In this document: in pieces, positions 26,609 through 58,500 of the stretch
Position numbering within the stretch: position 1 is the stretch's first letter
How the letters are laid out: every line of letters starts with the position of its first letter
NCBI GenBank assembly: GCA_023150835.1
Contig: JAKLKB010000020.1
Location: 1 to 64,000 of the forward strand
DNA length: 64,000 nt
Source: Myxococcota bacterium
GTDB lineage: Bacteria > Myxococcota_C > UBA6777
Direction: 5' to 3'
Translations under genes and position numbers: made by a program
Notes under the pieces: generated by a model
What the model saw: only the letters and a program-made list of their open reading frames with translations
What the model was told of the DNA's origin: nothing
Databases searched by the model: none

Positions 26609-26827
26609 ACGCCCACAAGCCACTCCTAGCGCAAAGATCGTGGGGGTAGCGTTTGCGAAAAAACGATGGATAAAGCGTCGCTCTTGCGCGTCAACCTGCC
26701 TCGAAAGCAACCTTTGGGCAAGTCCGCCCGATAACTGTGAACGATGTCACAACAGATCGCCCACATCGCGCAAATGCCGATAAACACAACGCCGATGTGG
26801 CCCTACTATCCCGATGGAGAACGAACG

Positions 26828-28057
26828 ATGAAGATCGAACGCAAGCCACATCAACCCCCACAACCGACCCCAAGCAAAACCCCCGCAGCCAAACCCCCCG
26901 CCGCACAACCCGCCGAACAAAAAAGCGCTTTCCAAAGCAACGACAACCGCGCACAACAACGCGACAACTTGCTTGGAACCCAAAAACAACCGACCCAACA
27001 ACCTTTCTTCGAGCGTTTTCTTGAAGATCAAAATCGCCTCCCCAAACCCGGCGGTGAGATGACCACCATGCGCTATCCTTCCGACAACGAAGGCGGCGAA
27101 GTTCAGCCCGGAAAACCCGGTGGTGAGATGACCACCATGCGCTACCCCTCCGACAACGAAGGCGGCGAAGTTCAGCCCGGAAAACCCGGTGGTGAGATGA
27201 CCACCATGCGCTACCCCTCCGACAACGAAGGCGGCGAAGTTCAGCCCGGAAAACCCGGCGGAAATGAAGTCACCACCAAGCGCTATCCTTCCGATTCGGA
27301 AGGCATGGAAACCCCTGTCAAGCCCGGCGGAAATGAAGTCACCACCAAGCGCTATCCTTCCGATTCGGAAGGCATGGAAACTCCAGGGAAACCCGGTGGC
27401 GGCGAGATGACGACCATGCGCTATCCTTCTGACAACGAAGGCAGCGAAGTTCAGCCCGGAAACCCCGGTGGTGGCGGCATGACCACCATGCGCTATCCTT
27501 CCGACAACGAAGGCAGCGAAGTTCAGCCCGGAAACCCCGGTGGTGGCGGCATGACCACCATGCGCTATCCTTCCGACAACGAAGGTGCAGAAACACCGAT
27601 CCAGTCGGGTGGTCCGGGACGTGAAGCTGTGACGATGGCCTATCCCTCCGATGCTGAAGGTACAGAAACCCCCATCAAGCCCGGTGGTCCGGGACGCGAA
27701 GCTGTGACGATGGCCTATCCCTCCGATGCTGAAGGTGCAGAAACTCCCGTCAAGCCCGGTGGTCCGGGACGCGAAGCTGTGACGATGGCCTATCCCTCCG
27801 ATGCTGAAGGTGCAGAAACCCCTGTGAAACCGGGAGGTGGCGAGATGACCACCATGCGTTATCCTTCCGACAACGAAGGGAACGAAGTCCAACCCGGAAA
27901 CCCCGGAGGTGGCGAGATGACCACCATGCGTTATCCTTCCGACAACGAAGGCAGCGAAACAACAGAAAACACGGGTGCTGCGGGCGGTGCGAAACAAAAG
28001 AAAGCTCTCCCTGCATGGGAATTGTTGGCACAACTCGCAAGCAAAGACAAAACATGA
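26828..28057 (+). CDS. mdnA: Microviridin-family (group 1 graspetide) multicore precursor peptide with 13 cores
   Basis: Leader motif PFFERFL (27002-27022; canonical PFFARFL); 13 TxxYPSDxEG cores separated by xPGG/SGG linkers; RBS GGAGA before ATG 26828; adjacent to an MdnC-type ligase. Confidence 0.92.
   Translation: MKIERKPHQPPQPTPSKTPAAKPPAAQPAEQKSAFQSNDNRAQQRDNLLGTQKQPTQQPFFERFLEDQNRLPKPGGEMTTMRYPSDNEGGEVQPGKPGGEMTTMRYPSDNEGGEVQPGKPGGEMTTMRYPSDNEGGEVQPGKPGGNEVTTKRYPSDSEGMETPVKPGGNEVTTKRYPSDSEGMETPGKPGGGEMTTMRYPSDNEGSEVQPGNPGGGGMTTMRYPSDNEGSEVQPGNPGGGGMTTMRYPSDNEGAETPIQSGGPGREAVTMAYPSDAEGTETPIKPGGPGREAVTMAYPSDAEGAETPVKPGGPGREAVTMAYPSDAEGAETPVKPGGGEMTTMRYPSDNEGNEVQPGNPGGGEMTTMRYPSDNEGSETTENTGAAGGAKQKKALPAWELLAQLASKDKT
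27047..27955 (+). repeat. Coding tandem repeat array of 13 units of 69-75 bp (graspetide cores)
   Basis: Repeated ACCACCATGCGCTATCCTTCCGACAACGAAGG and variants. Confidence 0.95.
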
Positions 28058-28104
28058 TCGATTGCGGATGAGCGGAGAGGATCGAGATTGGAGGGGAGAA
28101 CGCT

Positions 28105-29103
28105 TTGTCGAAGCCGCAAGTTCTTTTGATCACCCACACAAAAGATAACCAGAGCATCCCGATGGTCGAAGAAGCGATCCGACGGCGTGGAGGCGAGCCG
28201 ATCCGCCTCGATACGGATCGCTATCCGTTGGAGGTCAAGATCAACACCCGTTACGAAAACAGCGGTTGGTCGCAACGGCTGAAAACGCCGAACGGAGACA
28301 TCGATTTGACCCAGTTGACGGCGGTGTGGTATCGGCGTTTCTATGCAGGTCACGGTTTGCCCGAAACACTCGGAGATCTGTACGATCCTTCGATTCAAGA
28401 GTCACGAAGGACGTTGTGGGGGAGCATCGCCTCTTTGTCGTGTTTCCAACTCGATCCGCTGTCGAGTGTACGCCGCGCTGATCACAAAGAAGTCCAAACC
28501 CGCAAAGCGATCGAGCTTGGATTGGATATCCCTCGCAGCTTATTCACCAACGATCCAGACGAAGCCCGCGCATTTATCGAATCCATTGATGGACCCGTGA
28601 TCACCAAGATGCAACATCCGTTTGCCGTATACCGCCAAGGCATCGAGAATGTGGTATTTACAACGCGCATTCAGCCCGATGATCTAAGTGCATTGGAAGG
28701 ATTGCGTTTTTGCCCGATGATCTTCCAAGAAGAGATCGTCAAGACCTTGGATGTGCGTGTCACGATCGTCGGCAAGCAGATCTTTTCTGCTGCGGTCGAT
28801 GCGCAAACCAAAGCTGAGACGCAAGTGGACTGGCGTCGCGATGGCGTCGGGCTGATCCGCTCTTGGAAACCGTACACCCTGCCCGAAGATATCCCCCCCA
28901 AGCTCCTTGCGCTCCAAAATTTTTTGGGGCTGAATTATGGGGCCATCGACTTTGTTGTTTCTCCTGAGGGTCGCCACGCCTTCCTTGAGGTGAACGCAGT
29001 GGGTGAGTTCTTTTGGCTTGTTGATACCCCCGGCCTTCCGATCCCTGACGCGCTCGCTGACACGCTTTTGGGCCGCGTCGAACGTATCCCCGCCGTTGTT
29101 TAA
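28105..29103 (+). CDS. mdnC: ATP-grasp RiPP maturase of the MdnC/MvdD (omega-ester-forming) type
   Basis: VLLITHTKDNQSIPMV...RLDTDRYP, AVWYRR, VITKM..FAVY, LEGLRFCPMIFQEEI, DWRRDG, GLNYGAIDFVV, FLEVNAVGEFFWL, colinear with Microcystis MdnC as I recall it; TTG start with GGAGG RBS. Confidence 0.93.
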   Translation: MSKPQVLLITHTKDNQSIPMVEEAIRRRGGEPIRLDTDRYPLEVKINTRYENSGWSQRLKTPNGDIDLTQLTAVWYRRFYAGHGLPETLGDLYDPSIQESRRTLWGSIASLSCFQLDPLSSVRRADHKEVQTRKAIELGLDIPRSLFTNDPDEARAFIESIDGPVITKMQHPFAVYRQGIENVVFTTRIQPDDLSALEGLRFCPMIFQEEIVKTLDVRVTIVGKQIFSAAVDAQTKAETQVDWRRDGVGLIRSWKPYTLPEDIPPKLLALQNFLGLNYGAIDFVVSPEGRHAFLEVNAVGEFFWLVDTPGLPIPDALADTLLGRVERIPAVV

Positions 29104-29372
29104 GTCCGACTGAACTTCTCTCCCTTAACTTCTCTTTAAGTCTTTTGCCCCCACCTAAACCACACCGAGCATGGCGTATGTTGGCCGAGTTGTGGCGTGC
29201 GGCCCCACACCCCGCAAGGGAGCTTTGGCCCCTTGACCTCGTATTATCGGGGTGTTCCGACGATTTTCAAACCAACGAAGAATCTGCTTGGAGTACCGCG
29301 AACACGAGCGTTTTTGTCAACGAGTTTCGCTTCTGTTTTCAAGCAAGTCTTCTTTTTTGTTCGGAGGCTCCG

Positions 29373-30932
29373 ATGTCTGCTCGACGTGCGTTATTTCAAA
29401 TGGTTTCTTGTGCCTTGTTTTTGTTGGTGAGTCCTTTTCTCGCGGGGTGCGGCAACACGCCGCTGTGCCAATCCGAAAAGGATTGCATGGGCGATCAATA
29501 CTGCTACCAAGGGACTTGCGCTCCGTTGTGCAAAAACAGCGGAGACTGCTTGGGCAACGATCAGTGCAATACAACATCCAGCCGTTGCGCCCCCAACGGC
29601 TCCATCGAAAAAGCCCCTTCAGAGCAAGCTCCCGCCGAACAAACCACCGCCGAGACATCCGAACAAGAAAACACCGCAGATGCCCATGACTCCGAGCCTA
29701 CGGCGGAAAACGATCAAGAAAAAGAAACCATCGCAGAGCCTCTTCCCGAAACAACGCAAGAATCGGCTCCAGAATCGCTTTGTGGGAACGGTCAAATCGA
29801 TGCAAACGAAGCATGCGATGGGACCAACTTTGGCGAAAAAACGTGCGAAAAGCTCGGATTTTCGGGAGGCTTGCTGAAGTGCAATGCTTGTGCAATCGAC
29901 ACATCGGCTTGCACCAAGACCAACACCTCGAACTTTGGGAAAACTTGTCCAAGCAGCGGATGTGGAAGCGGTCTTGTTTGTGTAAAATTCGATACAGACC
30001 TTTCGATCTGCACAGCTTACTGCGACGCCAACACCCCCTGCCCGACGCAACCGGCGGGGGCATCGTGTCGTTTTACGCTCGAAGGTAGCGGAAAAGAGAT
30101 CTGTGGGTGGGCCACAGAGTCAGGCGCTCCGCCCGTTTGCGGAAACAACCAAACCGATGCAGGCGAAGATTGCGATGGGAACTCGGTGTTTGCGACGTGC
30201 AAAGGTCTCGGTTATACAGGCGGAACACTCAAATGCGATGCTTCGTGCAAATACGATACATCCGCATGTAGCGGACAAACCCTCTGCACGAGCCTCCCTC
30301 CCCGCCACTGCACCGATCCAAGCTGCTCACAGATCATCGCTTTTACACCGACCGCTGATAACGGATACATCGCGCTTCACGGCAACACCTTTAGCTGGCT
30401 GCGCCGAGATGCAGTGACGTTCGTCAAATATGCCACCGCGATCGTCAGTTGCGTCTTCCCCAACACACCGCCCCTTGGACTTGGGGACATGAGTATGCAA
30501 AACGGCCAAACACCCGCCGAAAACGGCCAGCTACGCCACCCCCAAGGAACACACGTCTACGGAACCGATATCGATCTCGCCTACTATCAAACAAACACCG
30601 CGAACAACCATCTACGGGCCGTTTGCGAACACTACACCAACGGGCAAGATCAATATCACTGCGTCTCACAACCCACCCTGCTCGAACCCAAACGAACGGC
30701 CTTTTTCCTCGCAAACATCCTTGCTTCTGCAAGAGTCCGTGTCATCGGCGTCGATGGAAAAGTCGGTCCCAAGCTTTTAACTGCGATCGATGAGTTGGCG
30801 CGTGATGGCCTGATCTCACCTGCCGCCCAACAACGCTTCAAAAGCGGCACCGTGACGTGGGAGGAAACCGACACCAAACGCGGCTGGTTCTATTTCCACC
30901 ACCACCACACGCACATCAGCTTTACGCGCTAA
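29373..30932 (+). CDS. Cys-rich lipoprotein with a C-terminal MepA-like (M74/LAS-type) murein endopeptidase domain
   Basis: Lipobox FLAGC; Cys-rich repeats (CGNG..D.NEACDG); GLGDMS...HPQGTHVYGTDIDLAYY and terminal HHHHTHISF; start re-called at ATG 29373 after GGAGG. Confidence 0.75.
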   Translation: MSARRALFQMVSCALFLLVSPFLAGCGNTPLCQSEKDCMGDQYCYQGTCAPLCKNSGDCLGNDQCNTTSSRCAPNGSIEKAPSEQAPAEQTTAETSEQENTADAHDSEPTAENDQEKETIAEPLPETTQESAPESLCGNGQIDANEACDGTNFGEKTCEKLGFSGGLLKCNACAIDTSACTKTNTSNFGKTCPSSGCGSGLVCVKFDTDLSICTAYCDANTPCPTQPAGASCRFTLEGSGKEICGWATESGAPPVCGNNQTDAGEDCDGNSVFATCKGLGYTGGTLKCDASCKYDTSACSGQTLCTSLPPRHCTDPSCSQIIAFTPTADNGYIALHGNTFSWLRRDAVTFVKYATAIVSCVFPNTPPLGLGDMSMQNGQTPAENGQLRHPQGTHVYGTDIDLAYYQTNTANNHLRAVCEHYTNGQDQYHCVSQPTLLEPKRTAFFLANILASARVRVIGVDGKVGPKLLTAIDELARDGLISPAAQQRFKSGTVTWEETDTKRGWFYFHHHHTHISFTR

Positions 30933-31045
30933 TACGATATCCGTAAGAAGCGTACACAAAGCATCATTCGGAGACGCCCGATTATCGGGCAGCCACAGGG
31001 GGCTGCCCCTACATTTTGACGATCACACTATGGGCGGATTTCGTA
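30933..31045. mobile_element. 113-bp MITE/REP-like element (copy A)
   Basis: Ends TACGATATCCG and CGGATTTCGTA; internal hairpin GGGCAGCC-ACAGG-GGGCTGCCCCTAC; begins immediately after the TAA stop. Confidence 0.75.
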
Positions 31046-31209: not shown

Positions 31210-31282
31210 AGCGGGAGACGGGGATCGAACCCGCGACCTTCAGCTTGGGAAGCTGACGCTCTACCAATTGAGCTACTCCCGC
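31210..31282 (-). tRNA. tRNA-Gly(CCC); CCA not encoded
   Basis: Reverse complement GCGGGAGTAGCTCAATTGGTAGAGCGTCAGCTTCCCAAGCTGAAGGTCGCGGGTTCGATCCCCGTCTCCCGCT folds as a cloverleaf; anticodon loop TTCCCAA. Confidence 0.96.
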
Positions 31283-31713
31283 AGATAGGGCTAGGGTGTA
31301 GCGCAAGCAGCGCAGGTTGTCAAGAGCAAAGATCAGCCGCTGCAAGACTGAGCAAGGATTCATTGTTTTTGAAAGAGTGGGCGGAGCGGATCAAGCTAGA
31401 CGGATGGGGAGAGAAGAGAAGAAGGGCAAGGAGAACAGAGCAAGCGGAGCAAAAACCAGTCTTGACTTTCTGCGGGAGTCTTGGTAAGAGCGCTTGCGTT
31501 TACGGGCTTGGATGTTTTTTGCAAAAGAGACGGATCGCGCAAGCGCATCGGTTTCAGGGTGCGGAGCATCAAGGGAAGCCGAAAGAGTCCATGAAGAGAA
31601 GCGAATGTTCGACGGGCGAAAGATCGCCTGCCTTTTGGAAGCTCTGAAACCACGATCCGTTGGGGTGGATGGGCCAGAGCGATAGACAACACCAGCGATT
31701 GAGGAGAGTGCAG

Positions 31714-32994
31714 ATGGCACGCAAAGGTATTCGTGAATACGACGCCAAGCGGATGTTGGCCACAGCCCTGACCGGTTACGATGGTCGGGTTGCCTTGGTG
31801 GGTCCCGGTGAAGATCTCAGAAAGAAAGCGGAAGAGTACCCTTGGTTGAAGACCGAGAAGCTGGTGGCGAAACCGGATCAACTTTTCGGAAAGCGCGGAA
31901 AGAACGGTCTGATCTGTTTGAACAAAGGTCTCGAAGAAACAGCGGCTTGGATCAACGAGCGCATGAACAAAGAAGTGACGCTGTTGAGCGGCGTGAAGGG
32001 CGTGTTGACGCACTTTATCGTGGAAGTGTTCACTCCGTTTGACGCGGATACACGCGAATATTACTTGTCTCTCGATCTGGATGTGAACGGCGATATCCTT
32101 CGCTTGTCCAATTCGGGCGGCATCGATGTGGAAGAGTACATGGGCGACGAGAACAAATTCGTCGAAGTGATGCTCAACGGTGACAAAGCCTTTGATCCCC
32201 AAGATGTCGATGCAGCGGTGAAAAAGCTGTTTCCTGCAAATCACCACGCTTCCGTGCATCGCTTTATCAAAGAAACCTACAGCCACTTTGTGGCGGGTGG
32301 TTACACGCTGTTGGAGATCAACCCCTTTGTGGTGTTGGGCGATGGTCGTGCGCAACCGCTCGATATGGTCGCGAAAGTGGACGACACCGCAGCGTTCGAG
32401 ACCCGCAAGATGTGGGGCGACAATCTGGAGTTTCCTGCTGCGTTCGGTGAACACCTGACGCCCGCCGAAGAATTCGTGCGCGAGTTGGACTCCAAGACAG
32501 GCGCATCGTTGAAACTGCGTATCCTGAACCCGAAAGGCCGTGTGTGGAACATGGTTGCGGGTGGTGGTGCATCGGTGATCTATGCGGACACCGTGTGCGA
32601 CTTGGGCTTTGCCAACGAGCTTGCGATGTATGGCGAATACTCGGGCAACCCCGACACCAACAACACCTACCTATACGCCAAGACGGTTCTTGAGCAGATG
32701 ACCGCAGAGAAAGATCCCCAAGGACGGCCCAAGTTCCTGCTTTTGGGCGGTGGTATCGCGAACTTTACGGACGTGGCCAAGACGTTTACGGGCATCATCA
32801 TGGCGATGCAAGAGTTGGCAGAAAAGATGAAAGAGGTCGATGTGCGCGTGTTTGTGCGTCGTGCAGGTCCCAACTACAAGGAAGGTCTCATCAAATTGAA
32901 GGCCGCCGGCCAGCGTTTGGGGATCCCCATCGAAGTGCATGGCCCTGAAACACACATGACTCAGATCGTGGCTGATGCGCTGTTGCGCAAATAA
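31714..32994 (+). CDS. aclB: ATP-citrate lyase, ATP-grasp/citrate-binding subunit
   Basis: MARKGIREYDAK, LVAKPDQLFGKRGKNGL, LEINP, SLKLRILNPKGRVWNMVAGGGASVIYAD, YGEYSG, GGGIANFTDVAKTF, VRRAGPNY. Confidence 0.95.
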   Translation: MARKGIREYDAKRMLATALTGYDGRVALVGPGEDLRKKAEEYPWLKTEKLVAKPDQLFGKRGKNGLICLNKGLEETAAWINERMNKEVTLLSGVKGVLTHFIVEVFTPFDADTREYYLSLDLDVNGDILRLSNSGGIDVEEYMGDENKFVEVMLNGDKAFDPQDVDAAVKKLFPANHHASVHRFIKETYSHFVAGGYTLLEINPFVVLGDGRAQPLDMVAKVDDTAAFETRKMWGDNLEFPAAFGEHLTPAEEFVRELDSKTGASLKLRILNPKGRVWNMVAGGGASVIYADTVCDLGFANELAMYGEYSGNPDTNNTYLYAKTVLEQMTAEKDPQGRPKFLLLGGGIANFTDVAKTFTGIIMAMQELAEKMKEVDVRVFVRRAGPNYKEGLIKLKAAGQRLGIPIEVHGPETHMTQIVADALLRK

Positions 32995-33056
32995 TGGCTG
33001 CGCTGCTTCGAAACGACACAGCGAATCGCAAATCGCGCACATAAGGGAGAAAACAG

Positions 33057-34901
33057 ATGAGCCGACCCAGTTACCAGCTCTTCGATAAAAATACCACCGC
33101 GCTGATCTACGGGATGCAGACCGCAGCGGTGCAACGTATGCTTGACTTTGACTTTGCTTGCCGTCGCGCCAAGCCCTCCGTTTCCGCGTTGATCAACCCG
33201 GGTAGCGAAGGCTACGAGAAGATCTTTTGGGGCACAAAAGAGATCCTTCTACCCGTGTTTCCTGATATCGCCTCGGCTGCCAAAGCCTGCCCTGAATCCG
33301 ATGTGTTGATCAACTTCGCCTCGTATCGTTCGGCCTATCCGACGACGCTCGAAGCGATGGCGATCCCCCAACTCCGCACGCTCGTGATCATCGCCGAAGG
33401 CGTTCCCGAGCGCCGCGCCCGTCATCTGCGCGGTCTCGCCCGTGAGAAGGGTATCAACATCATCGGTCCCGCGACCGTTGGTGGGATCAAAGCAGGTGTG
33501 TTCCGTATCGCCAACACGGGCGGAACCATCGAAAACATCGTCAGCTCCAAACTGCATCGCCCGGGTTCTGTGGGCTTTGTGTCCAAATCAGGCGGGATGT
33601 CCAACGAGTCCTACAACGTGATCGCCCAATGCACCGACGGCGTCAACGAAGGGATCGCGATCGGTGGCGATGCGTTCCCCTGTTCGACGTTGCTTGATCA
33701 CCTGCTGCGTTTCCAAGACAACCCTGACATCAAGATGATGGTGTGTCTCGGTGAAGTGGGCGGCGAAGAAGAATACCGTATCGCCGAGGCCATCGCGAGC
33801 GGACGCATCACCAAACCCGTTGTGGCATGGGTGACAGGAACCTCGCTCGAACACCTGCCCCAAGGCGTACAGTTCGGACACGCCGGCGCAAAAGCCGATG
33901 TCAAGCGCGAAACCGCACCCGCCAAAAACGAGGCACTGCGCAAAGCCGGTGCGATCGTTCCCGAGTCTTTCAACGACTACGGCAAAGCGATCAAAGACAC
34001 CTTCGACAAACTCGTTGCCGAAGGCAAACACACGCCGATCGCAGATGTCGAACCACAAAACGTCCCGATGGACTTCAAAAGCGCTGTGGCGCTCAAGATG
34101 GTTCGCCGTCCCACCAACTTCATCTGCACGATCACCGATGATGCGGGTGATGAACTCAACTACGCAGGCCACAAGATCAGCAAGGTGATCAGCGAAAACT
34201 ACAGCATCGGCGATGTCTTGTCGCTGTTGTGGTTCCGCGAGCGCCTTCCCAAGTGGGCCACCGACTTCTTGGAGATGGTGATCAAGTTGACTGCGGATCA
34301 CGGCCCCGCAGTATCGGGCGCACACAACGCGATCGTCACGGCTCGCGCAGGACGCGATCTGATGAGCGCGGTGGCGTCGGGTATCTTGACCATCGGTCCG
34401 CGTTTTGGGGGTGCTGTCGCAGGTGCCGCAGTGATGTTCAAAGATGCGTACGACCGCAAGCTCAATGCCGTCCAATTCATCGATGAAAAGAAAAAGCAAA
34501 ACGTCAACGTTCAAGGGATCGGCCACCGCATCAAGTCGCTGCGCAATCCCGACATGCGCGTTGTCTTGCTCAAAAAATATGCAGACGAACATTTCCCCCA
34601 ACATCCCCTGCTTGACTTTGCTCTCGAAGTCGAACAAGTGACGACACAGAAAAAAGATACCTTGATCCTCAACGTGGACGGTGCCATCGGCGTGTTGTGC
34701 GTCGATATGATGTACGCATGCGGCTTCTCCGAGCGTCGCGTGCAAGACGTTGTCGATGCAGGCGCACTCAACGGCTTGTTCTTGCTTGGCCGTACCATCG
34801 GCATGGTCGGTCACTTTATGGATCAACACCGCCTCAAAGCGCCGCTCTATCGCCATCCTTGGGACGATATCCTCTACGACTTGCCCGCAGACGCAGAATA
34901 A
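33057..34901 (+). CDS. aclA: ATP-citrate lyase, CoA-binding/phospho-His/citryl-CoA lyase subunit
   Basis: QRMLDFDF, IIGPATVGGI, SKSGGMSNE, QFGHAGA (phospho-His), ADHGPAVSGAHN, GIGHRIKS, LILNVDG, LYRHPWDDI. Confidence 0.96.
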   Translation: MSRPSYQLFDKNTTALIYGMQTAAVQRMLDFDFACRRAKPSVSALINPGSEGYEKIFWGTKEILLPVFPDIASAAKACPESDVLINFASYRSAYPTTLEAMAIPQLRTLVIIAEGVPERRARHLRGLAREKGINIIGPATVGGIKAGVFRIANTGGTIENIVSSKLHRPGSVGFVSKSGGMSNESYNVIAQCTDGVNEGIAIGGDAFPCSTLLDHLLRFQDNPDIKMMVCLGEVGGEEEYRIAEAIASGRITKPVVAWVTGTSLEHLPQGVQFGHAGAKADVKRETAPAKNEALRKAGAIVPESFNDYGKAIKDTFDKLVAEGKHTPIADVEPQNVPMDFKSAVALKMVRRPTNFICTITDDAGDELNYAGHKISKVISENYSIGDVLSLLWFRERLPKWATDFLEMVIKLTADHGPAVSGAHNAIVTARAGRDLMSAVASGILTIGPRFGGAVAGAAVMFKDAYDRKLNAVQFIDEKKKQNVNVQGIGHRIKSLRNPDMRVVLLKKYADEHFPQHPLLDFALEVEQVTTQKKDTLILNVDGAIGVLCVDMMYACGFSERRVQDVVDAGALNGLFLLGRTIGMVGHFMDQHRLKAPLYRHPWDDILYDLPADAE

Positions 34902-35151: not shown

Positions 35152-36891
35152 ATGTCCCAAATCGATGTCTTGTATTTTCCCGGTGATGATCGTGCAGAAG
35201 ATGCCAGCGAAGTCGCCAAAGACGTTGCCAACGCTGCACTTGCGCGTGCCAACGAGATCGTGGGTTCGAGCCACAAGTTCAACTGGATCTCTGAGAACGA
35301 AGATCCCCGACTGACCGTGGGTTTGCGCCTGTGGTTGCGGTTGAAAAACCAATTTGACCTGCCCGTTCTCAACGAAAACGACGCACGCGATAAAGAAGTC
35401 CTCAACTTCATCTTGAAGTCCGATATCACGGACATTCAGGCCAAGTACCCCAAAGTTCAGGCGTCTGATCTGGCCTTCATCCGCGACGCGGCGCAATCGT
35501 TGTTGGACATGAACGTGTTGGTGCCTTCGGATGGCGTACTCGAAGCGTTGAATCGCGTGGGCTACTCCTACAAAGGCGCGACCGGCACGCTCTCTGGCAA
35601 AGGCACCCCCGCAAGCATCAACGTGTTTATTCGCCAAAAACTCGAATCCGACGCTTGTGTGCGCGATTTCAAAAACGTGGCCCCTCGCAAACACAAATCC
35701 GTGGATGTCGATATGGCCGTATTTGTGGGCTGTGAAGGCGTGACCTCCGAGTCTGAACACCTCGTCGGAACGGGCTACACCGACGCCAAGATCATCACCA
35801 AAAAATCGGCAGCGGTGATCCAAAAAGCCTTTGAATACGCCAAAGCCAAAGGCATCGACAAGGTCTATGTTGCGGAAAAAGGCAACATCTTGAAAGAGTC
35901 GGACAACGCCTTCATCGATCTGGCAAAAGCCGCAGAAGCCGAAACAGGCGTGAAGATGGAATACATCATCTTCGACAACTTCTTGCAACGCATCACCAAA
36001 AACCCCGATTGGTTCAAGGTGGTCGTCACTTCTCGCTTCAATGGCGAAGAGTTCTTGGTTCCCCTTGCCGTCGCCATGTTCAACGAAGTCGAACGCGAAG
36101 ATCTCGGAAAAGATGTGGGCGTCTTCTCCCGCTACGTCGGCAAAAACATCGACTACACCAAAACCAAGATCGACACCCGCTGCTATCGCCAAAACAACGA
36201 GTGTTTCTACATCGGCGAAGACAAACGAACCGAAACCGAATCCATCAACTTCCGCCGCATCACCCGCAAGATGTCCGAAAATATCATCCGCTACTCGCTC
36301 GATGATACGCTTGTGCGCGGTGCAAAACGCTTGTTCATCCTGTATTCACCGTACCTCGCAGGCGACAAGCTCTTCCTCCAAGTGGGCCGAGAGATCGCCC
36401 GCGAAGAAAAGTACAAATCCATCGATGTGGTGTTTATGACCATCGGCGACTACTGCTGGTACACCGTCCATCGCCCCGAATCGGTCGAAGGCGTGGTGGG
36501 AACCAACTTGACGATGGACTTTTTGACCGACGCAGAAGCCTCGAAGATCGGTGGGATCGGGATGATGCCCAGCTTCAATTACACCCTTGAGACGGGCATT
36601 ATGGTGTCCGAACCCGGCCACGGGACTGCTCCCGACCTCCAGCCCAACCAGATCAACCCCGGTGCTTCGATCTGGGCGATGGCTGCGTTGCTTGAGCGTA
36701 TGAGCGACGACCTCAGCGGTCGGATCACTCCCGACCAAAAGAAAACACTCGCCAAAGCCGCAGAACTCGTCTACAAAGCCACCACGCAATTCTACTCCGC
36801 AGGCCAAAACTTGACGGGTGATCTCGGCGGAACCGGCACCACCACAGGCGTCGGCGATGGCATCAAAACCATCCTCCATTCCCTCCAATAG
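35152..36891 (+). CDS. icd: Isocitrate dehydrogenase-family protein with an internally duplicated small domain; probably NAD+-dependent
   Basis: FPGDD, KGATGT...SINVFIR...ACVR, KGNILK, IFDNFL, RQNNECFY, NLTMDFLTD, EPGHGTAPDL, INP, LTGDLGG. Confidence 0.8.
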   Translation: MSQIDVLYFPGDDRAEDASEVAKDVANAALARANEIVGSSHKFNWISENEDPRLTVGLRLWLRLKNQFDLPVLNENDARDKEVLNFILKSDITDIQAKYPKVQASDLAFIRDAAQSLLDMNVLVPSDGVLEALNRVGYSYKGATGTLSGKGTPASINVFIRQKLESDACVRDFKNVAPRKHKSVDVDMAVFVGCEGVTSESEHLVGTGYTDAKIITKKSAAVIQKAFEYAKAKGIDKVYVAEKGNILKESDNAFIDLAKAAEAETGVKMEYIIFDNFLQRITKNPDWFKVVVTSRFNGEEFLVPLAVAMFNEVEREDLGKDVGVFSRYVGKNIDYTKTKIDTRCYRQNNECFYIGEDKRTETESINFRRITRKMSENIIRYSLDDTLVRGAKRLFILYSPYLAGDKLFLQVGREIAREEKYKSIDVVFMTIGDYCWYTVHRPESVEGVVGTNLTMDFLTDAEASKIGGIGMMPSFNYTLETGIMVSEPGHGTAPDLQPNQINPGASIWAMAALLERMSDDLSGRITPDQKKTLAKAAELVYKATTQFYSAGQNLTGDLGGTGTTTGVGDGIKTILHSLQ

Positions 36892-41682: not shown

Positions 41683-42489
41683 TTATTCTTCTTCGTCTGG
41701 AATTCCACGAAGAAAGTTTTGTAAGATCTCATCCTCCGCGTTGCGCATCTCTTGAACTGTACCGATGCGATGGATACGCCGACCAGAAAGAAACGCGATC
41801 CTATCGGAAAAATAAAAGGCCCCTCCCATATCGTGCGTGATCACCATCGCGGTCACGCCCCGTTCTTGTTGTACGGTACGGATCAGCTTGTTGACACGAA
41901 CCGTACTTTCGGGATCGAGACCCGTCGTGGGTTCATCGTACAAAATAACCTCGGGCTGCATGACGATCGAACGCGCCAGACCGACCAGTTTGCGCATCCC
42001 CCCCGATAATTCGGAAGGATAACGCGCAGCAAACGAGCGCGGAAGATTGATCAGATCGAGTTGCGCTTCCACGCGCTCGCGGATCGCCGTCTCTTCCAAG
42101 CGTAGATGTTCGCGCAATGGATAGGCGATATTCTCGAAGACTGTAAGCGAATCGAAAAGAGCCGCCAACTGAAACACCATCGAGATCCGCTTGCGCACTT
42201 CGATGAGCTGAAACTCCGACAGATGGGTCAGATCCACCCCCCTATACAAGATCTGCCCCGTATCTGCGGTCAGCAAACCGATCAAGATCTTGATCATCAC
42301 GCTCTTGCCTTGCCCCGATCCCCCAAGGATGGTCAGCGTCTCCCCCGACAAGACATCGAAATGCAGATCTTCGTAGATGCGCTTGCTGCCGAAAGCTTTT
42401 TGCACGTGAACATAACGGATCAGCGGTTCTCCCGCAGGAACGGGCGTTTCATCAAATTGAACTGCGAAGCCTGCACACATACATCCCAC
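41683..42489 (-). CDS. mlaF: MlaF-type ABC transporter ATPase
   Basis: GGSGQGKS, VFQLAALFDSLTVFENIA, LSGGMRK, LYDEPTTGLDP, ITHD. Confidence 0.93.
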   Translation of the reverse strand: MGCMCAGFAVQFDETPVPAGEPLIRYVHVQKAFGSKRIYEDLHFDVLSGETLTILGGSGQGKSVMIKILIGLLTADTGQILYRGVDLTHLSEFQLIEVRKRISMVFQLAALFDSLTVFENIAYPLREHLRLEETAIRERVEAQLDLINLPRSFAARYPSELSGGMRKLVGLARSIVMQPEVILYDEPTTGLDPESTVRVNKLIRTVQQERGVTAMVITHDMGGAFYFSDRIAFLSGRRIHRIGTVQEMRNAEDEILQNFLRGIPDEEE

Positions 42490-42495
42490 CCAGCC

Positions 42496-43290
42496 TTAGC
42501 GAAAAACCACCAACAAGATCTGCGTCAAAAAGAAATCGCTGATCAACACACTGATGCTAATCAATTCAACGGTTCCCGTTGTGGAAAGCCCCACGCCTTG
42601 GGTGCCGCCTTGGGTGTTGAAACCTTGGTAACAACCGATCACAGCCACCAAAAAGCCGAATACAACAGCCTTAATCAAGCCCGTAAAAAAGTCACCTAGA
42701 TCCACAACGTCCAACGACGATTGATAGAAAAACAAGGGGGGGATATTAAACTGACTGGACGAAAGTCCTTGGGCAGCCAAAAACCCCGTAATATCGGCAA
42801 AAACAGTCAGCATCGGCATGATAATCAAACTGGCCGCAAGACGGGGTACGATCAGCTTTCGGATCGGGTCCGCACCCAACGCACGGATCGCGTCGATCTG
42901 CTCCCCGACCTTCATCGAACCCAACTCCGCTGCCATCCCACTACCGATCCGCCCTCCCACGATCAAAGCCGTCAACACAGGAGCCAACTCACGAAACAAA
43001 GAAACCGCAACCACCGGCCCCACATAATCTTGCGCACCAAACTTCCCAAGGCCGTAGGCAAATTGAAGCGCCATCACGCCACCGATCGCCGCAGCCGTCA
43101 ACAAACCGATCCGCAAAGAGCGAACTCCCAAAAGCTCGATCTGAGCGATCACTGCGCGTAGATCATACGGCGGCAAGACCATGCGCCACGCCGCCAAGTA
43201 CGACAACCGCGTGATCGAACCCATAAACCAGATGTATTCGATGGCACGCGCACCGACCGTTTGAAACAAAGAAACAAACCAAGCGCTCAT
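42496..43290 (-). CDS. mlaE: MlaE-type ABC transporter permease
   Basis: RELAPVLTALIVGGRIGSGMAAELGSMKVGEQIDAIRALG, PRL, GGTQGVG. Confidence 0.95.
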   Translation of the reverse strand: MSAWFVSLFQTVGARAIEYIWFMGSITRLSYLAAWRMVLPPYDLRAVIAQIELLGVRSLRIGLLTAAAIGGVMALQFAYGLGKFGAQDYVGPVVAVSLFRELAPVLTALIVGGRIGSGMAAELGSMKVGEQIDAIRALGADPIRKLIVPRLAASLIIMPMLTVFADITGFLAAQGLSSSQFNIPPLFFYQSSLDVVDLGDFFTGLIKAVVFGFLVAVIGCYQGFNTQGGTQGVGLSTTGTVELISISVLISDFFLTQILLVVFR

Positions 43291-43880
43291 TGTGACAACA
43301 CCCGAAATCCCGCGATCACACGATAAAAATCACCCACACCAAGGCCAAAATTCCACGGAAGCGTCACATAAGCCATGTCATAGATGCAGCGGTTTTTTTT
43401 CATCACCAAAAGCGCCGCTTTGACGGGACGACCATCCATGCGCGCAGTCATCTCTGTGTACAAAGCATCGCGAGCATCGATACGACGGCGCTCTTGCACC
43501 AGCACCTTGCGATGCGTCAGCCCGTAAAACAGGTGATCCGTCAAGATCCGCAACGGCACATCTTCGTAATCTTTCCGACAAGTCGAGTTGATCTGAATGG
43601 CGGCATTATAACCCTCATGGATGTAAGCGATGTTGTTCTCACTCACCCGCACAAAGCGCCAGTCTTTTCCGATCTCGCCCACCCGATAACGCATATCACC
43701 GTCATAATAAACGCTTCCTTTGAGGCCCGTAGCAGGGCATCCCCCCAAACAAAACCATCCCCCCGCCAAGATCGCCGCCACCCCCATACGCACCAAACAC
43801 CTCAACCAAACCAACAAGCGAAGAGACCGCAACATACTTCCATTCCTATCCAAACAACACCGCTTGAGCGCGCAAACCAC
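43287..43880 (-). CDS. Putative lipoprotein coupled to the mla operon; start uncertain
   Basis: Lipobox-like CLGGC; 4-nt overlap with the mlaE start. Confidence 0.7.
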   Translation of the reverse strand: MVCALKRCCLDRNGSMLRSLRLLVWLRCLVRMGVAAILAGGWFCLGGCPATGLKGSVYYDGDMRYRVGEIGKDWRFVRVSENNIAYIHEGYNAAIQINSTCRKDYEDVPLRILTDHLFYGLTHRKVLVQERRRIDARDALYTEMTARMDGRPVKAALLVMKKNRCIYDMAYVTLPWNFGLGVGDFYRVIAGFRVLSQ

Positions 43881-52227: not shown

Positions 52228-52518
52228 ACCTTTGTTATCCGCTGATTTCCTTTGGTATGTATGTCGTTGTTGTGTCTCTCTCTCTCGAAAACGTGGTTGC
52301 CTTTCCTCGAAGGCCTGTGCTAATAGAAAGGCCCAACATTTTCGTCTGTGCGGACTTCTCATACAAAGCGCGAACGTCTCTGTGAGGAAATCAAACTACA
52401 CCCAAAGCCTTCTTCATCAAAGACCTCACGCAACGCATGGTAGCATTCGTTTTTTTTGTGGTTGGATACTGAAACGCGAGTGAGCATTGAAACTTCAGCA
52501 CGCAGGAGCGGTGAGTCT

Positions 52519-55500
52519 ATGTCGGTAGAAGAAATTCAGAATTATTTGCGGATCCTAGAGGCCGTTCCAACGAACGTGCCTGCTTTCGAAGCCCTCAAGC
52601 AGATCTACACAGAACACCAACGTTGGGAAGAACTGGCCCAACTCGTAGAAGACCGTGCGGAACGCTTGCCTGATCGCAGTCAAGCCCCTGCGCTTTATCT
52701 ACAAGCGGCCAACACTTGGTTCCACAAGGAGCAAAACACCGAACGCGCCAAAAAGACCATCACCAAAGTGTTGGAGTTGATCCCCAACGAACGCAACGCC
52801 CTCGCTCTCTGGCGCGAACTCGCCACTTTTGAAGGGGACTTTGCAACCGCGATCAAGATCTTGCGCCAAGAGATCCAGATCACCGAAGACGCCCGCGAAA
52901 AAAGCAAGCGTTTTGTGGATATCGCCAAGATCTTCGAAGAACACATGGACAACCAAGAACACGCTGCGATGGCCTACCATCAAGCCTTCTTGCAAGACCC
53001 CGAGAATTTGGGGCCGATGGAGCAAGCGCTTCGACTCTACCGCAGCCGAGGCGATTGGCAACGTGTGATCGCAGTCCTGCGAGCGCGGCTCGAAAAAGTC
53101 TCCGAAGCCTCGAACAAAGCGCGCCTGATGTTCCAAATCGGCCAAATCTTTATCCAACATCTTGATGAAGGCAAAACTCCCGAAGGACTCGCCAAAGCCG
53201 CTCAACTTTTCCGCGAAGCCCTTAACCTTGATCCCGATCTCGATGACTTTGACAACGCACTCGAACTCTACAAAGACAACAAAGAGTGGTCTCAAGTCAC
53301 CGCACTCTTGCGCGCAAAACTCGAGGTTGTCACCGAAAACACCAAAAAAGCGCGGCTGCTGCTTGAGCTTGGAAACGTCATTCTTCAACACCTCGAAGAA
53401 GGACAAACCCCCGAAGGTCAACAAAAAGCCTCGCAATTCTTTCAAAAAGCCCTTGAGTTCGACCCCAGCCTCAACGAAGCCAAAGAAGCCATCGAAGAAC
53501 TTTCCTACGCAACGGAAGATTGGTCTTCTCTGCTCAAGCGTTTGAAGAAAGACATCCGTGACGCGGGCAAAGACGAAGATCGCGCCGCCTTCTTGAACTA
53601 CAAGATCGCAGAAGGCTATCTCCTCCGAGAAGACAAACCTGCTTACGCTGTCCGTTATTGCAAACAAGCCCTCGAACTCCAACCCAACCACACCAAGTCT
53701 CAAGACCTGTTGCAGCGCTTGTACGCGGATTTGGAACGATGGGAAGCCTTGGCGGACTTCTTTAACGATTGCACCAAAACGGCCCTTGATGCCCCGGCAA
53801 AAGTCAAGTGGCTCAAAAAACTCGCTCGCCTTTACCGCGAACAAACCAAAGAACGCGAACGCGAGATCGAAACCCTTGAACGCATCCTTGATATCCTTCC
53901 CACCGAGCGCGAAACCCTCCAACACCTCGAGAACATCTACCGCGACAACGGCCAATACAGCCGCGCACTCGAAGTGATGGACAAGCGTCTCAAAACCTTT
54001 GAAGAATCCGCAGCGAAAAAAACCCTGCTCTACGAGATGGCCACCCTCGCCAACAAGGAACTCCAAGACTCAACGCGAGCCGCCGGATACTACGAGCGGA
54101 TCTTGTCTCTTGATCCCGACGAGATGGACGCGATCGATGCGTTGCTGCCGCTATATGAAGCCGAAGCCCGTTGGGAAAACCTGATCCAAGGACTCAAGCG
54201 AAAGCTCGAACGCACCGAAGATCGGCACGCTCGCGCAACCATGCTGACACGTGTCGGCGACATCTACGCGCAACGCCTTGCTCTCTCCAAAGAAGCCTTC
54301 GATGCCTACACACAAGCCCTTCGTGAAAACCCCCAAGACAGCGATCTGACCCAAAAACTCGAAGCCCTCGCACGTCAGATCGGTAACTGGGAAGAGATGG
54401 TCGCGCTCTACCGCAACACCTTGGAAAGCGCAAACGATCCTGCCGATCAAGCCGCCCTCTACTTCCGCATCGGCGACATCTACGAACGCGAACTCCAAGA
54501 TGTCGAGCAAGCCAAAGCATCCTACGAAGAGGCTCTCGAACGCGCCCCACAACTCGGCGCAATGAACGCCCTTCAACGCCTCTATCGCCAAAGCGAAGAC
54601 TGGACCTCCTTGGCAGAGCTTCTCCAAGAAAAGTCCAAAAACGACAACCTCGATGAAGACCAACGCATCGAAGTCTTCGAAGAACTCGCTCGCATTCAAC
54701 TCAACTACATCGACGATGCCGACGGTGCAGCCGAGACTTACGAAAAGCTGCTCGACGCAAGCCCTTCGTATGGCCCAGCCCTCGAAGCCTTGGAGCGTGT
54801 CTACAAACAAAACGAAAATTGGGCCAAACTGCGTGGTGTCTACCAGCGCCGCGTGGACAACCCCAACAGCGAGTCCGAACTCAAATCGACGCTACATATC
54901 CTCGGTAGCCTTTTGATCGAACAGCTCGATGCTTTCGAAGATGCCGTCCAAGTCTACCAACAATTGCGCGTCCTTGATCCCAACGACTTGAGCATCTTGA
55001 CCCGACTCGAAGGTCTCTATCGCGACTTGGGCCAATGGGAACAATGGGTGGACACTGCGCGCCAACGCGCTGAAAGTATCCGTCGCCCCGAGCAAAAGAA
55101 AGAAGTCTTGCTGGAGATCGCCAAGATCCAAGAAGAAGAACTCGATGATTCTGTCGGAGCGATCGCTGTTTTGCGCGAACTTCACGAGATCGACAGCCAA
55201 GATATCAAGATCCTCGATGAACTTGAGCGACTTCTCGAAGTCGAAGACGATAAAGCCGGTCAGTTGGAGATCCTTCGCAAAAAGGTGAACCTCCAACAAA
55301 ATGCCAACGAGAAAAAAGTCCTGCTCTTCCGCGTCGCAGACCTCCACCGTGCGCTTGATAACGAAAGCGATATGGCCGAAGCCTACCGCGAGATCTTGGA
55401 TATCGATCCCCGCGACCTTCGATCCTTGCGCTCCCTCCAAGCCTACAACCAACTCCAAGGCGATCACGAAGGCGTCCTCGATCTCTTGCTGCGCGAACGC

Positions 55501-58500
55501 GATATCGTCACCGAAGACGCCGATCGCAGCCGCCTCACTCAACGCATTGCTCAACTTCAAGCAAACTTGGGCCGTTACGAAGACGCGATCATCGAATATC
55601 GCCAGATCCTCGCCCAAAACAACAACGACAACCAAGCCCGCACGGCGCTGGAAGAGATCGCAACCAAACACGCTGGCTGGCGCGTTGAAGCCCTCCAAGT
55701 CCTCGAACCGATCTACCGCGCAGCCCAAGACTGGGAAGCCTTGGTCAAGGCACTCGAAGCTCGCTTCCAAGTGGTGCATGACAAAGCACAACGCCTCGAT
55801 ATGGCCCGTGAACTCGAAGAGATCTATCGCCGCCTGAGTGACGATGAAAAAGCTTTCTATTGGAGTTGCCAACTCCTACGCGAAGACTTCGCGGATACCG
55901 AGATGCGCGAACGTGTCGAGATGATGGCCGATGAGATGGAGCGTTGGGACGAATTGCTCGTAGTCTACGAAGATATCGTTCGCAGCTTTGTTGATCGCCA
56001 ACAGATCGTCGAAACCTACCTGTTTATCGCACGCAATTATCAAGATCGCCTCAGCCAACCCGAAAATGCCCTGCGTAACTATCGCCGCGTGTTGGACTAC
56101 GATTCCAATAACCCCGAAGCCATCGACGCGCTCGAAGAACTGTATCGTGCGCTCGGACAATGGCGCGATCTGATCGATATCTTGCGTATGCGCGTCGAGA
56201 TGACCGCCGCCGTCGACGAAAAGAAAGAACTCCTGTTTGAAGTCGCCGATCTATGGGAAGACAAACTCCAAGATCCCCCCGAAGCCATCCAAGTCTTCAA
56301 CGATATCTTGGAACTTCAAAACAACAACCTGACCGCGATCCGTCGTCTTGCTGCGTTGTATGAGCGAGAGTCCCGATACACCGACCTCGCAGAAACATGG
56401 GAAAAAGAACTCTCCCTACTCGACAACGAAGAAGAACTTCTTTCCTTGCGCTTCAACCTTGGGCAACTGTATGCGGATCATCTCAACCGCATCGAAGACT
56501 CCCTCAAGATGATGCAGCAAGTCCTCGAAGTGGATCCCGAGCACCAAGAAGCCATCCAGCGCGTCCATGCTCTTCGCGAAGAAGACGCTTACCGCTTGAT
56601 CTGCGCCCGCATCTTGGAGCCGATCTATCTCCACCAAGAAAACTATCCCGAACTCAAAGCCATCTACAAGATCCAACTCGAAGACGCTTCACAAAACGCA
56701 AACGACCGTCGCAAGGCCCTGATGCGCCTTGGCCAGTTGCACGAAGAAAAGCTCGGCGAATTCCGCGAGGCTTTTGACCGCTACCTCCAAGTGTTCAAAG
56801 AAACCCCCGGCCAACACGGTACCCGAAAAGCCCTGTTGCGTATGAGCGAAAAGCTCGATGCTTGGCGCGAATTGGCTCTGAACTTTGAAAACGGTGTCGA
56901 TGCTTGCGAAGACTCCGAAGAAAAGATCCAAATCCACCTCGATTTGGCGCGGATCTACCGCGAACGCCTCCACGATCCAGATCGCGGAATGAATCACGAC
57001 CGCCGTGTCGTGGACGATCTTGATTCCAAAAACCTCCAAGCCATCGAAGCCTTGGAAGACTTTTATCAAGAGCGCGAAAACTGGCATTCGCTGATCGACA
57101 TCCTCTTCCAAAAAGAACAAGCCCTCCACGATGAAGTCCTCAAAAAGGGCGTGTTCAATCAGATCGCCAATATCTATGAGAACCAACTCTCCGACAAATA
57201 CCAAGCGATCTTGATCTTGCGCCAATACCTCAGCCGACTTGAAACCCAAGATCCCGGCCCTGCCCCTGTTGAAATCGCCTTGCGCGAAGCAAAAGAGCGC
57301 GAAACCAAGCTCCAACAGGAAAACCAAGAACTGATCGATGCCGTCGAGATGGCTCGCGAACAGCTTTCCAGCCTCGAAAACCAAGCCGAAGAGGCCGAAG
57401 CTTCGCTCAAAGAGTACCGTGACATCGTCGCAGAATCCATGCGCACCCCCGAAGAAGACGCCGAAGTCGAGCGCACTGAGGCCGCATGGAAACAAACGCA
57501 AGCCGCGCTTGCAAAAGCCGAAGAATCGGCGGCTGCACGCATCGCACATGCCAACGCGCTCGCTGCTGAACTTCAATCTCTCGAAGAAGCCGCTGAACCC
57601 GATGTAGACGCCATCGCAGTCAAAACAGGCGAAGTGGCCGATGCCACCGAAGCTGTGGAAGCTGCCGATCACCAGATCGAAGAAGCCCGATACATCGCCC
57701 AAGCCGCACGCACCGCCTACGAAGACGCTCAAACCGCAAAAGCCGCAGCATCCGCAGCCGGCCCCAGTTCGGATCAAGCGTCCGAACTCAAACGTCTTGA
57801 ATCGATGCACCGAATGGTTCAGCAAGCCCAAGAAGCCAAAGCTGCCGAACTGCGCGAGATGCAAGAACAACTCGATCAAGCAGAAGTCAAAGAAGCCGAA
57901 GCTGCCGAAGCCGTCCGCACCGCCGAACAAGCCATGGAAGCAGCGGCGGAGCAGATCCAAACTATCCTTGAGCAACGCACCGCCTTCAAACTCGACACCA
58001 TCCAAGAACTCGCTCGGCTCTTTGAAGAAGAAGAGCGTTGGGCTGATCTCGTCGAGATCTTGGAAAAAGAAGTCGAATTGCTCGCAGAACCCGAAGAAGC
58101 CCTGCGCCTGCGCTTCCGCATCGCTCAGCTCTGGCAGGATCAATTGCACGATGTCCCCCGTTCTATCCGCCTTTATCGTGAGATCCTCAACGACGATCCC
58201 GACTTTGAATCCGCCCTCCAAGTCATGGAAGAACTCAGCGAAAATGAAGATTACCAACTCATGGTCGCCGAATCGCTCGAAAGCTATTTCCGCGAAGGCC
58301 GCCAAGATTGGACTCGCTTGATCGAGATGGTCGAGATCCAACTCAACCACACCGCTGAAAGCGAAAAACGCTTGGCCTTCCTCAAAGAGATCGTGGCTCT
58401 CTACGAACTCGAACTCGACAACACCGATATGGCCTTCGTCTATCTGTGCCGTGCTTTCCGCGAAGCCCCCACCGATCGCGATGTCATCTCCGAACTCGAA

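Follow-up and report, generated by a model that had tools for sequence, protein, structure and literature searches.

Marinostatin and the multicore microviridins are among the closest described systems to a two-gene graspetide locus found at 26828..29103 of the stretch analysed here, 64,000 nucleotides (nt) of Myxococcota DNA (contig JAKLKB010000020.1 of assembly GCA_023150835.1), which is called the window. In the accessible text of PMC10125368, marinostatin E is the bicyclic peptide ATMRYPSDSDEDGFN, which inhibits chymotrypsin and subtilisin but not trypsin or elastase. The corresponding text of PMC9623506 gives Met as the P1 residue of marinostatin, and that of PMC13039773 describes marinostatin as having the lactone architecture in common with microviridins but no lactam. 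Reviews citing Ahmed et al. 2017 tie the absence of MdnB to marinostatin in their available passages. The window locus resembles marinostatin (MEROPS I10; marinostatin E from Algicola sagamiensis) in the core TMRYPSD, in Arg instead of Lys6, in Met at P1, in a PFFARFL-type leader and in a bicyclic, lactone-only product as predicted here. The marinostatin cluster has one ligase, and the second ester acceptor in marinostatin is Asp; Kanaori et al. in 2005 reportedly placed the ester pairs at Thr3-Asp9 and Ser8-Asp11. Known marinostatins, however, are single peptides from marine Gammaproteobacteria, whereas here 13 cores of three types lie on one precursor in a Myxococcota metagenome-assembled genome (MAG), and the second ester acceptor would be Glu, as in microviridins.

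Class II multicore microviridins such as AMdnA/AMdnC of Anabaena PCC 7120 share with the window locus one leader, tandem cores and Gly-Gly linkers, and an MdnC-type ligase that forms two lactones per core in a distributive manner. They differ in that AMdnA has 3 cores, in that class II cores keep Lys6 and the acidic residue 13, and in that a second ligase (AMdnB) accompanies them. A C39-ABC transporter usually stands alongside them, whereas none was found at the window locus. The chryseoviridin system of Chryseobacterium (CdnA3/CdnC) is also an ester-only multicore system with one ATP-grasp ligase, and CdnC is the second-best solved match of the window ligase. In contrast to the window precursor, chryseoviridin has one microviridin-like bicyclic core and four other ester rings, and no tandem array of identical cores.

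Microviridin-type clusters are already on record in myxobacteria. One in Sorangium is mentioned in the available part of PMC5934393, and those of Archangium, Cystobacter and Sorangium are described as conserved, uncharacterised biosynthetic gene clusters (PMC12766979). A first-pass annotation, made from the window sequence alone, had noted the apparent myxobacterial host; the host is indeed a Myxococcota MAG, but these records take away part of the novelty. A 2026 mining study of Myxococcota demanded the motif TxKxPSDx(D/E)(D/E) (PMC12848669), a filter which would exclude cores like those of the window. The string MRYPSD was found in the literature searched only in the marinostatin E passage.

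It is highly probable that the locus is a two-gene, marinostatin-type graspetide locus in the lactone-only branch of the microviridins, carried by an uncultured activated-sludge Myxococcota. Two marinostatin-type features were found in it, the absence of Lys6 and a single ATP-grasp ligase, and TMRYPSD, as in marinostatin E, lies inside 8 of the 13 cores. The predicted lactone-only bicyclic product is, from its sequence, of the long-known marinostatin type and no new kind. The bicyclic reading of the first-pass annotation thus holds as a mechanism but not as a novel variant, the core TMRYPSD being identical. The locus is an uncharacterised hyper-multicore variant of the marinostatin type.

Precursor, core array and ester ligase

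The precursor gene (26828..28057, + strand; called as an open reading frame (ORF) and by family models) encodes 409 amino acids followed by a stop codon. The longest ORF over it is 26744..28057 on the + strand (437 amino acids). The ATG at 26828 (MKIERK) appears the likelier start, because a Shine-Dalgarno-like GGAG was read 8 nt ahead of it (26816..26819, + strand) and because MKIERK is kept in locus L006, an independent assembly of a near-identical organism, while the ATG at 26744 is not. The protein consists of a Pro/Gln-rich leader, 13 core units and a 34-residue tail. The leader recognition motif PFFERFL occupies residues 59-65 (27002..27022, + strand), and the genome match of the model NF033738 begins at 27002. 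No obvious signal peptide was seen in the precursor by eye.

The precursor was matched by Pfam PF12559 Inhibitor_I10 with 125.3 bits (cut-off 21) and by NCBIfam NF033738 (microviridin/marinostatin family) with 149.3 bits (cut-off 26). A genome search with NF033738 recovered the precursor. The genome search with PF12559 gave zero matches in the own genome and equally in every control, so that this negative carries no information. No second multicore precursor was found elsewhere in the genome by a six-frame regular-expression scan.

The 13 units form an array at 27062..27952 (+ strand), each 69-75 nt long (23-25 residues), as defined by tandem repeats and a regular-expression count. The cores, 33 nt each, start at 27062, 27131, 27200, 27272, 27341, 27410, 27482, 27554, 27629, 27704, 27779, 27848 and 27920. 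Exactly as had been claimed from the first pass, the regular expression and the unit table give 8 TTMRYPSDNEG, 2 TTKRYPSDSEG and 3 VTMAYPSDAEG cores behind the PFFERFL leader, grouped in blocks of 3, 2, 3, 3 and 2. T4, S9, D10 and E12 are retained in 13/13 cores, so both ester pairs are present. Position 6 is Arg in 10 cores and Ala in 3, and position 13 is Gly in all 13; the lactam pair of Lys6 and an acidic residue 13 therefore occurs in 0/13 cores. A PGG motif lies within every linker, and the arrangement of tandem cores behind one leader is class II-like. Among the eight TTMRYPSDNEG cores, 0-4 of 33 nt differ, and all changes are silent. The periods of 69, 75 and 72 nt reported by Tandem Repeats Finder scored 578, 421 and 236. 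These scores, and family-model scores far above the cut-offs, indicate that the core array is not due to chance.

The second gene (28105..29103, + strand) encodes an ATP-grasp ligase of 332 amino acids with a TTG start, 6 nt ahead of which the Shine-Dalgarno-like GGAGGGGAG was read (28090..28098, + strand). The two genes are co-directional, and the gap between them (28058..28104) is 47 nt, as first noted. The ligase contains the MvdD pre-ATP-grasp domain PF21068 (125.9 bits, cut-off 27), and scored 407.8 bits with TIGR04184 (MvdD), 270.6 bits with TIGR04185 (MvdC) and 43.4 bits with the RimK family. Among the solved structures, MdnC (5ig9) ranked first with 283.3 bits, followed by CdnC (269.5 bits), 5ig8, which we take to be MdnB (221.1 bits), AMdnB (204.5 bits), 7drm, presumably PsnB (48.3 bits), and RimK (about 22 bits). 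In a 38-row IQ-TREE phylogeny, the split between MvdD-type and MvdC-type enzymes was supported at 100/100 with the window ligase on the MvdD side, within a 25-row clade of non-cyanobacterial multicore loci (support 100/99); a 146-row FastTree phylogeny agreed. The 65 columns invariant over 24 homologues are all retained in the window ligase, by construction. Model scores, structure ranking and trees thus agree with the MdnC/MvdD-type assignment made at first pass: by sequence, the enzyme is of the MvdD/MdnC type and not MvdC, PsnB or RimK, and it does not group with RimK or other enzymes outside the RiPPs, peptides that are made by the ribosome and modified after translation.

Lactam system and core number in related loci

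The genome is a 93% complete MAG of 7.56 Mb in 239 contigs. A second ligase of the MvdC/MvdD type was not found in it, and both models match only the gene of the locus; a weak extra match on contig C172 reached 32.5 bits with TIGR04185 (about 30 bits for both models). The search for mvdC proposed with the first annotation thus came back empty in this genome. All 36 non-overlapping ORFs of at least 110 amino acids in the window were scanned with Pfam, and no MvdC-type ligase, GNAT acetyltransferase or peptidase-ABC exporter was found among them. MdnD and MdnE were likewise not found in the window, in agreement with the absence of MdnB/MvdC, MdnD and MdnE first reported for it; no search for MdnD or MdnE was made in the remainder of the genome. 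The sole ABC components in the window belong to an Mla system (41683..43329). No lactam is expected, given that Lys6 and an acidic residue 13 are missing from all cores and that the genome has no MvdC/MdnB.

The relation between the lactam residues and the second ligase was compared over 81 loci, namely the best 80 of 553 ligase relatives, with one genome per species, and the window. A second MvdC-like ligase was present in 69/81 loci, including one fusion and some fragments. The other 12 were single-ligase loci, two of which lie at contig ends (L017, L033) and two of which have no recognisable precursor in the flanks (L043, L046); these four do not enter the counts of cores. Two-ligase loci with a precursor (n = 63) had Lys6 and Asp or Glu at position 13 in 222/225 cores. 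In contrast, single-ligase loci with a precursor (n = 8) had this pair in 3/64 cores, all three in L030. In the ligase tree, well-supported branches force at least three origins of the single-ligase state, and one origin occurred in 0% of bootstrap trees. The three origins are the window with L006, five Archangium MAGs, and L043/L030/L046; L017 was discounted in this count, as it lies at a contig end. One ligase only was likewise found in the L006 genome and in that of Archangium L059. These results support the proposal, already made at first pass for this locus, of a joint loss of the lactam residues and the lactam enzyme, and show the loss to be recurrent, with at least three independent events required by the ligase tree. 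On this tree, the lactam system was lost in the window lineage independently of other lineages.

The five Archangium loci (L059, L060, L064, L066 and L080) resemble the window locus in a single MvdD-type ligase and in 5-9 cores of the form T[MK][RA][YF]PSDxE, with Lys6 and an acidic residue 13 in 0/33 cores. They differ in that their lactam loss was independent by the ligase tree, in that they have fewer cores, and in that the precursors begin with a long folded domain and end without the C-terminal tail.

Several observations were made on other loci and precursors. A domain of about 100 residues (..YTALIP.G....DPNK..F.IERSGG.AG..) stands ahead of PFFxRFL in Myxococcaceae/Archangium precursors, namely those of the five Archangium loci, of L007, L022, L025, L042, L075 and L085, and in P0001, P0002 and P0010. 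In P0009 and P0165, this domain is C-terminal, after the cores, and no N-terminal motif was seen, a natural permutation of leader and follower. P0141 and P0152 are multicore precursors of 841-948 amino acids with C-terminal extensions of 430-547 residues, which contain helical repeats and PEI(R/A)PE motifs. In L016 (5810..7996), MvdC-like and MvdD-like domains (188.8 and 400.7 bits) share one 729-codon frame adjoining a 15-core precursor, and the frame may encode a fused two-ligase enzyme. In L030 (6239..7993, Solibacteraceae), the six cores are 3 TMRYPSDNED and 3 T[LM]KFPSDxED, the latter with Lys6 and the acidic residue 13. L030 could be an intermediate in the loss of the lactam system, or its second ligase could be encoded elsewhere. 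A candidate locus of a sister genus, L087, was rejected: it has an ATP-grasp match of 271.7 bits and no YPSD precursor within 1.5 kb.

The number of cores was also compared. The multicore class is described in print as having 'up to five' cores, as far as the accessible text goes, and AMdnC works distributively on 3 natural cores and on 1-4 engineered ones according to the available part of PMC5934393. At least 12 cores were counted in 9 of the 71 loci with a precursor in the locus set: 16 in L007, 15 in L009, L016 and L029, 13 in L052, L075 and the window, and 12 in L006 and L085. The loci exceeding 13 cores are all two-ligase, lactam-type loci. Among lactone-only loci, the window (13) ranks first, followed by L006 (12) and L059 (9). 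An exhaustive HMMER search of 1.84 billion representatives matched 71 proteins with top core counts of 15 and 14. Which precursors rank highest in core number depends on the regular expression (the maximum is 10 with strict [YFW]PSD and 14-16 with any residue ahead of PSD). The 13 cores are thus beyond the published limit, as the first-pass annotation had held, but not beyond public genomes, in which MAGs with 12-16 cores are frequent; they are the highest number seen here for the lactone-only type.

The copy number itself has a caveat. L006 comes from another Myxococcota MAG, its ligase is 98% identical, and its precursor has the leader, blocks and tail of the window precursor with one unit fewer in the first block. 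The short-read contigs of 4/4 runs, the DNA run included, break within the array at 27088..27922, and the longest exact repeat inside the array is 91-110 nt. Since these contigs break, the figure of 13 rests on one assembly, and 13 versus 12 in L006 may be real variation or assembly error.

Predicted product and rival explanations

The arrangement of the esters, the role as inhibitors and the target proteases given in the following are inferred. The ribosome would make the 409-residue precursor, and the ligase would dock onto the PFFERFL leader helix. Acting distributively, as shown for AMdnC, it would equip every one of the 13 cores with a pair of omega-esters, with the Thr4-Asp10 ring first and the Ser9-Glu12 ring second, giving up to 26 dehydrations. 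The bicyclic cores would then be substrate-mimic inhibitors of serine proteases, with the mimic of the scissile bond at positions 5 and 6. The 8 Met-Arg cores, the same as in marinostatin, would be of the subtilisin/chymotrypsin type, the 2 Lys-Arg cores are expected to be of the trypsin type, and 3 further cores have Met-Ala. Three core types on one gene would therefore make an inhibitor set of three specificities. A protease encoded away from the locus may free the cores by cutting at the PGG linkers, or the product may remain one polyvalent chain.

Occurrence in sequencing runs bears on whether the locus is active. The stretch was present in 20/24 of the runs listed (7 studies, on activated sludge, wastewater and bioreactors); 8 of these 20 runs were RNA libraries. 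Contigs from the RNA libraries of three studies start at 26487, 26758 or 26796, end at 29150, 29157 or 29173, and span the 3' end of the precursor gene into the ligase gene. Their ends lie within 25 nt of one another with no loose ends, while the DNA contig continues to 30961, a weak hint at a precursor-ligase transcript that ends about 50-70 nt past the ligase stop codon. No intrinsic terminator or sigma-70 promoter scored above shuffles. The locus is probably expressed.

Several points weigh against the lactone-only marinostatin-type reading. RNA libraries can contain DNA, and their contigs give no measure of expression. As the genome is a 239-contig MAG, the absence of MvdC is not absolute, and L030 shows that a single-ligase locus can retain some cores with Lys6 and an acidic residue 13. 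The scans of the window ORFs revealed no leader peptidase, exporter or acetyltransferase, and the only C39 peptidase of the genome is a stand-alone 356-residue protein on contig C151, unlinked to the locus and only a candidate for precursor processing. The ligase scores under the equivalog cut-off of TIGR04184 (407.8 vs 475 bits), which was reached by none of the genomes profile-searched, and the window and L006 ligases share a long stem (0.59 in IQ-TREE); because of this score and this branch, the ring pattern could differ from that of MdnC. The ligase tree does not include marinostatin's own ligase, and no Alteromonas or Algicola records were among the best 80 of 553 relatives.

The alternative to be taken most seriously has the same chemistry with the chain left uncut, so that the product is one polyvalent 'beads on a string' inhibitor. 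We regard it as possible, though the less likely fate. Plesiocin and chryseoviridin, both multi-repeat graspetides, have been handled in this form in the laboratory, the linkers, short stretches rich in Pro and Gly, are kept in L006, and neither the window nor the 19 flanking ORFs scanned beside the Archangium or Solibacteraceae single-ligase loci contained a peptidase or a peptidase-ABC exporter. On the other hand, every linker has PGG and the genome does encode the stand-alone C39 protein. GG motifs are the usual release sites of class II/III precursors (accessible text of PMC13039773; PMC11626197), and known marinostatins are, in the passages available, peptides of 12-15 residues. A further alternative concerns the cross-links themselves. 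The ligase might make other or additional ones, for instance between the first Thr of TT and a linker Glu, in the way of the dual-function CdnC. Each unit has spare hydroxyls at T3 and Y7 and a Glu ahead of the core and at position 15, the ligase stands on a long branch with CdnC as its second-best solved relative, and chryseoviridin with its four extra esters is a precedent (accessible text of PMC10125368). Neither among the three core types nor in the cores of Archangium, however, are these spare residues conserved. Ordinary microviridin cores contain TT as well and use just one of the two Thr, and we consider extra cross-links improbable.

Two other explanations have very little probability. 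A tricyclic microviridin could still be made if the lactam ligase lay in sequence missing from the assembly (93% complete, 239 contigs). The cores come close to refuting such a product, as Lys6 and an acidic residue 13 are both absent from all of them; a single ligase was found in each of the related genomes G001 and G002, and the lactam pair is missing in 61/64 cores of the single-ligase loci. It would be just as surprising if the locus were a decaying or silent remnant without a product. The lack of accessory genes and the patchy occurrence, in 2/6 genomes of the order, would fit a remnant. But both frames are intact with Shine-Dalgarno sites, identical cores differ by silent changes only, the architecture is kept in L006, and in three studies contigs of RNA libraries extend over both genes. 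The marinostatin-type, lactone-only locus is therefore the preferred reading.

The C-terminal tail and the surroundings of the locus

After the last core, the precursor ends in the tail SETTENTGAAGGAKQKKALPAWELLAQLASKDKT (residues 376-409; 27953..28054, + strand), which is conserved in L006 with two substitutions outside its helix. The tail helix LPAWELLAQLA (residues 394-404; 28007..28039, + strand) is a candidate second ligase-docking element. PAWELLA matches PFFERFL at Pro, an aromatic residue, Glu and one hydrophobic position. No such tail was found in the 17 other locus precursors of at least 5 cores or in 48 database multicore precursors, and none of these 48 had motifs at both ends. As a recurrent sorting signal, the tail was rejected: tblastn against the whole genome gave only chance-level matches (best E 0.38). 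In the six-core, lactam-less precursor P0175, the sole PFFxRFL-like motif, PLFVDFL, stands at the extreme C-terminus, and P0175 is, from its sequence, a candidate natural follower-type precursor of the microviridin family.

The complex of the ligase and tail 376-409 was predicted with an ipSAE of 0.73 (0.72-0.75 in three runs), whereas the best control reached 0.00. In calibration, 116/157 solved complexes and 2/215 mismatched pairs reach the ipSAE mark, counts that are only rough here as a custom ligase alignment was used. Contacts common to the runs were at least 77%, and partner pLDDT was at least 61. In the prediction, tail residues 389-407 contact ligase residues 167-169, 173, 175, 179-190, 195-203 and 205. 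By HMMER alignment to 5ig9, ligase V183, D192, D193 and A196 correspond to V182, E191, D192 and N195 of MdnC, which are published leader contacts of this enzyme (PDB entry 5ig9; PMC7823629). The predicted tail interface includes V183 and A196 and brackets D192 and D193. In MdnC, residues matching D192/D193 grip the leader Arg, which the tail does not have. Because the MdnC-leader complex is already solved, the docking score may only mean that the tail looks leader-like to the model.

A related arrangement has been engineered. In ThfA15, of the fuscimiditide system, a multicore precursor bears a leader at its N-terminus and a copy of the leader at its C-terminus, and addition of the C-terminal leader to this trivalent graspetide precursor led to more fully modified product (available part of PMC13003496). 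ThfA15 differs in being artificial and in belonging to another graspetide group, and in the window precursor the second docking element is a prediction. Tentatively, the ligase may dock naturally at both ends of the window precursor, where PFFERFL and the follower helix KALPAWELLAQLA would use the same leader groove of the ligase. On the basis of the complex model, this candidate second docking helix is the only feature of the locus that looks new.

The locus was found in 2 of the 6 genomes of the host order in the collection, both of one genus, and its neighbours are unrelated to it. A spermidine-synthase-like membrane protein is encoded upstream. Downstream follows a Cys-rich lipoprotein (29373..30932, + strand) with a LAGC lipobox and a myxo_disulf_rpt match of 20.4 bits, which is syntenic in L006 and had no Pfam or PDB sequence match. 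His/Asp motifs in its C-terminal part recall LAS metallopeptidases. A role as a LAS-type maturation protease was considered and is unsupported: besides the lack of Pfam and PDB matches, the RNA contigs stop short of this gene, and no counterpart was found next to other single-ligase loci. Loose ends of RNA and DNA contigs around 30930..31000 suggest strain variation there. A tRNA-Gly (CCC) gene (31210..31282, - strand) lies between the lipoprotein gene and two ATP-citrate lyase genes (31660..34901, + strand; Citrate_bind and Citrate_synth_N; Ligase_CoA and Citrate_synt in Pfam), after which an isocitrate-dehydrogenase-like gene follows (35152..36891). ATP-citrate lyase is unusual in a myxobacterium, and the genes may belong to a reverse tricarboxylic acid cycle or to a eukaryote-like acetyl-CoA route. 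One open frame of 3739 amino acids with TPR and ARM-like repeats extends over 52444..63660 (+ strand).

The findings on this locus do not overturn current understanding. If the proposed mechanism is correct, one gene pair with one modifying enzyme would turn a single translation product into 13 inhibitor warheads with three specificities, and would be a compact chassis with which marinostatin-type inhibitors could be produced or diversified. The range of a single MdnC-type ligase would be widened from the 3 natural or 4 engineered cores in print to 13 in the window and as many as 16 in public genomes. If the second docking helix is real, a distributive ligase could be recruited from both ends of the array of 13 cores and 330 residues and could complete the modification of the distal ones. 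The precursor would then be a natural counterpart of the engineered two-leader graspetide precursor of 2026 and would offer a design rule for hyper-multicore RiPPs. The putative helix is a testable answer to the question of how very long multicore precursors become fully modified. For the family as a whole, the repeated joint loss of a ligase and of the Lys/acid pair on which the lactam depends is a clean example of enzyme-substrate co-evolution in RiPPs.

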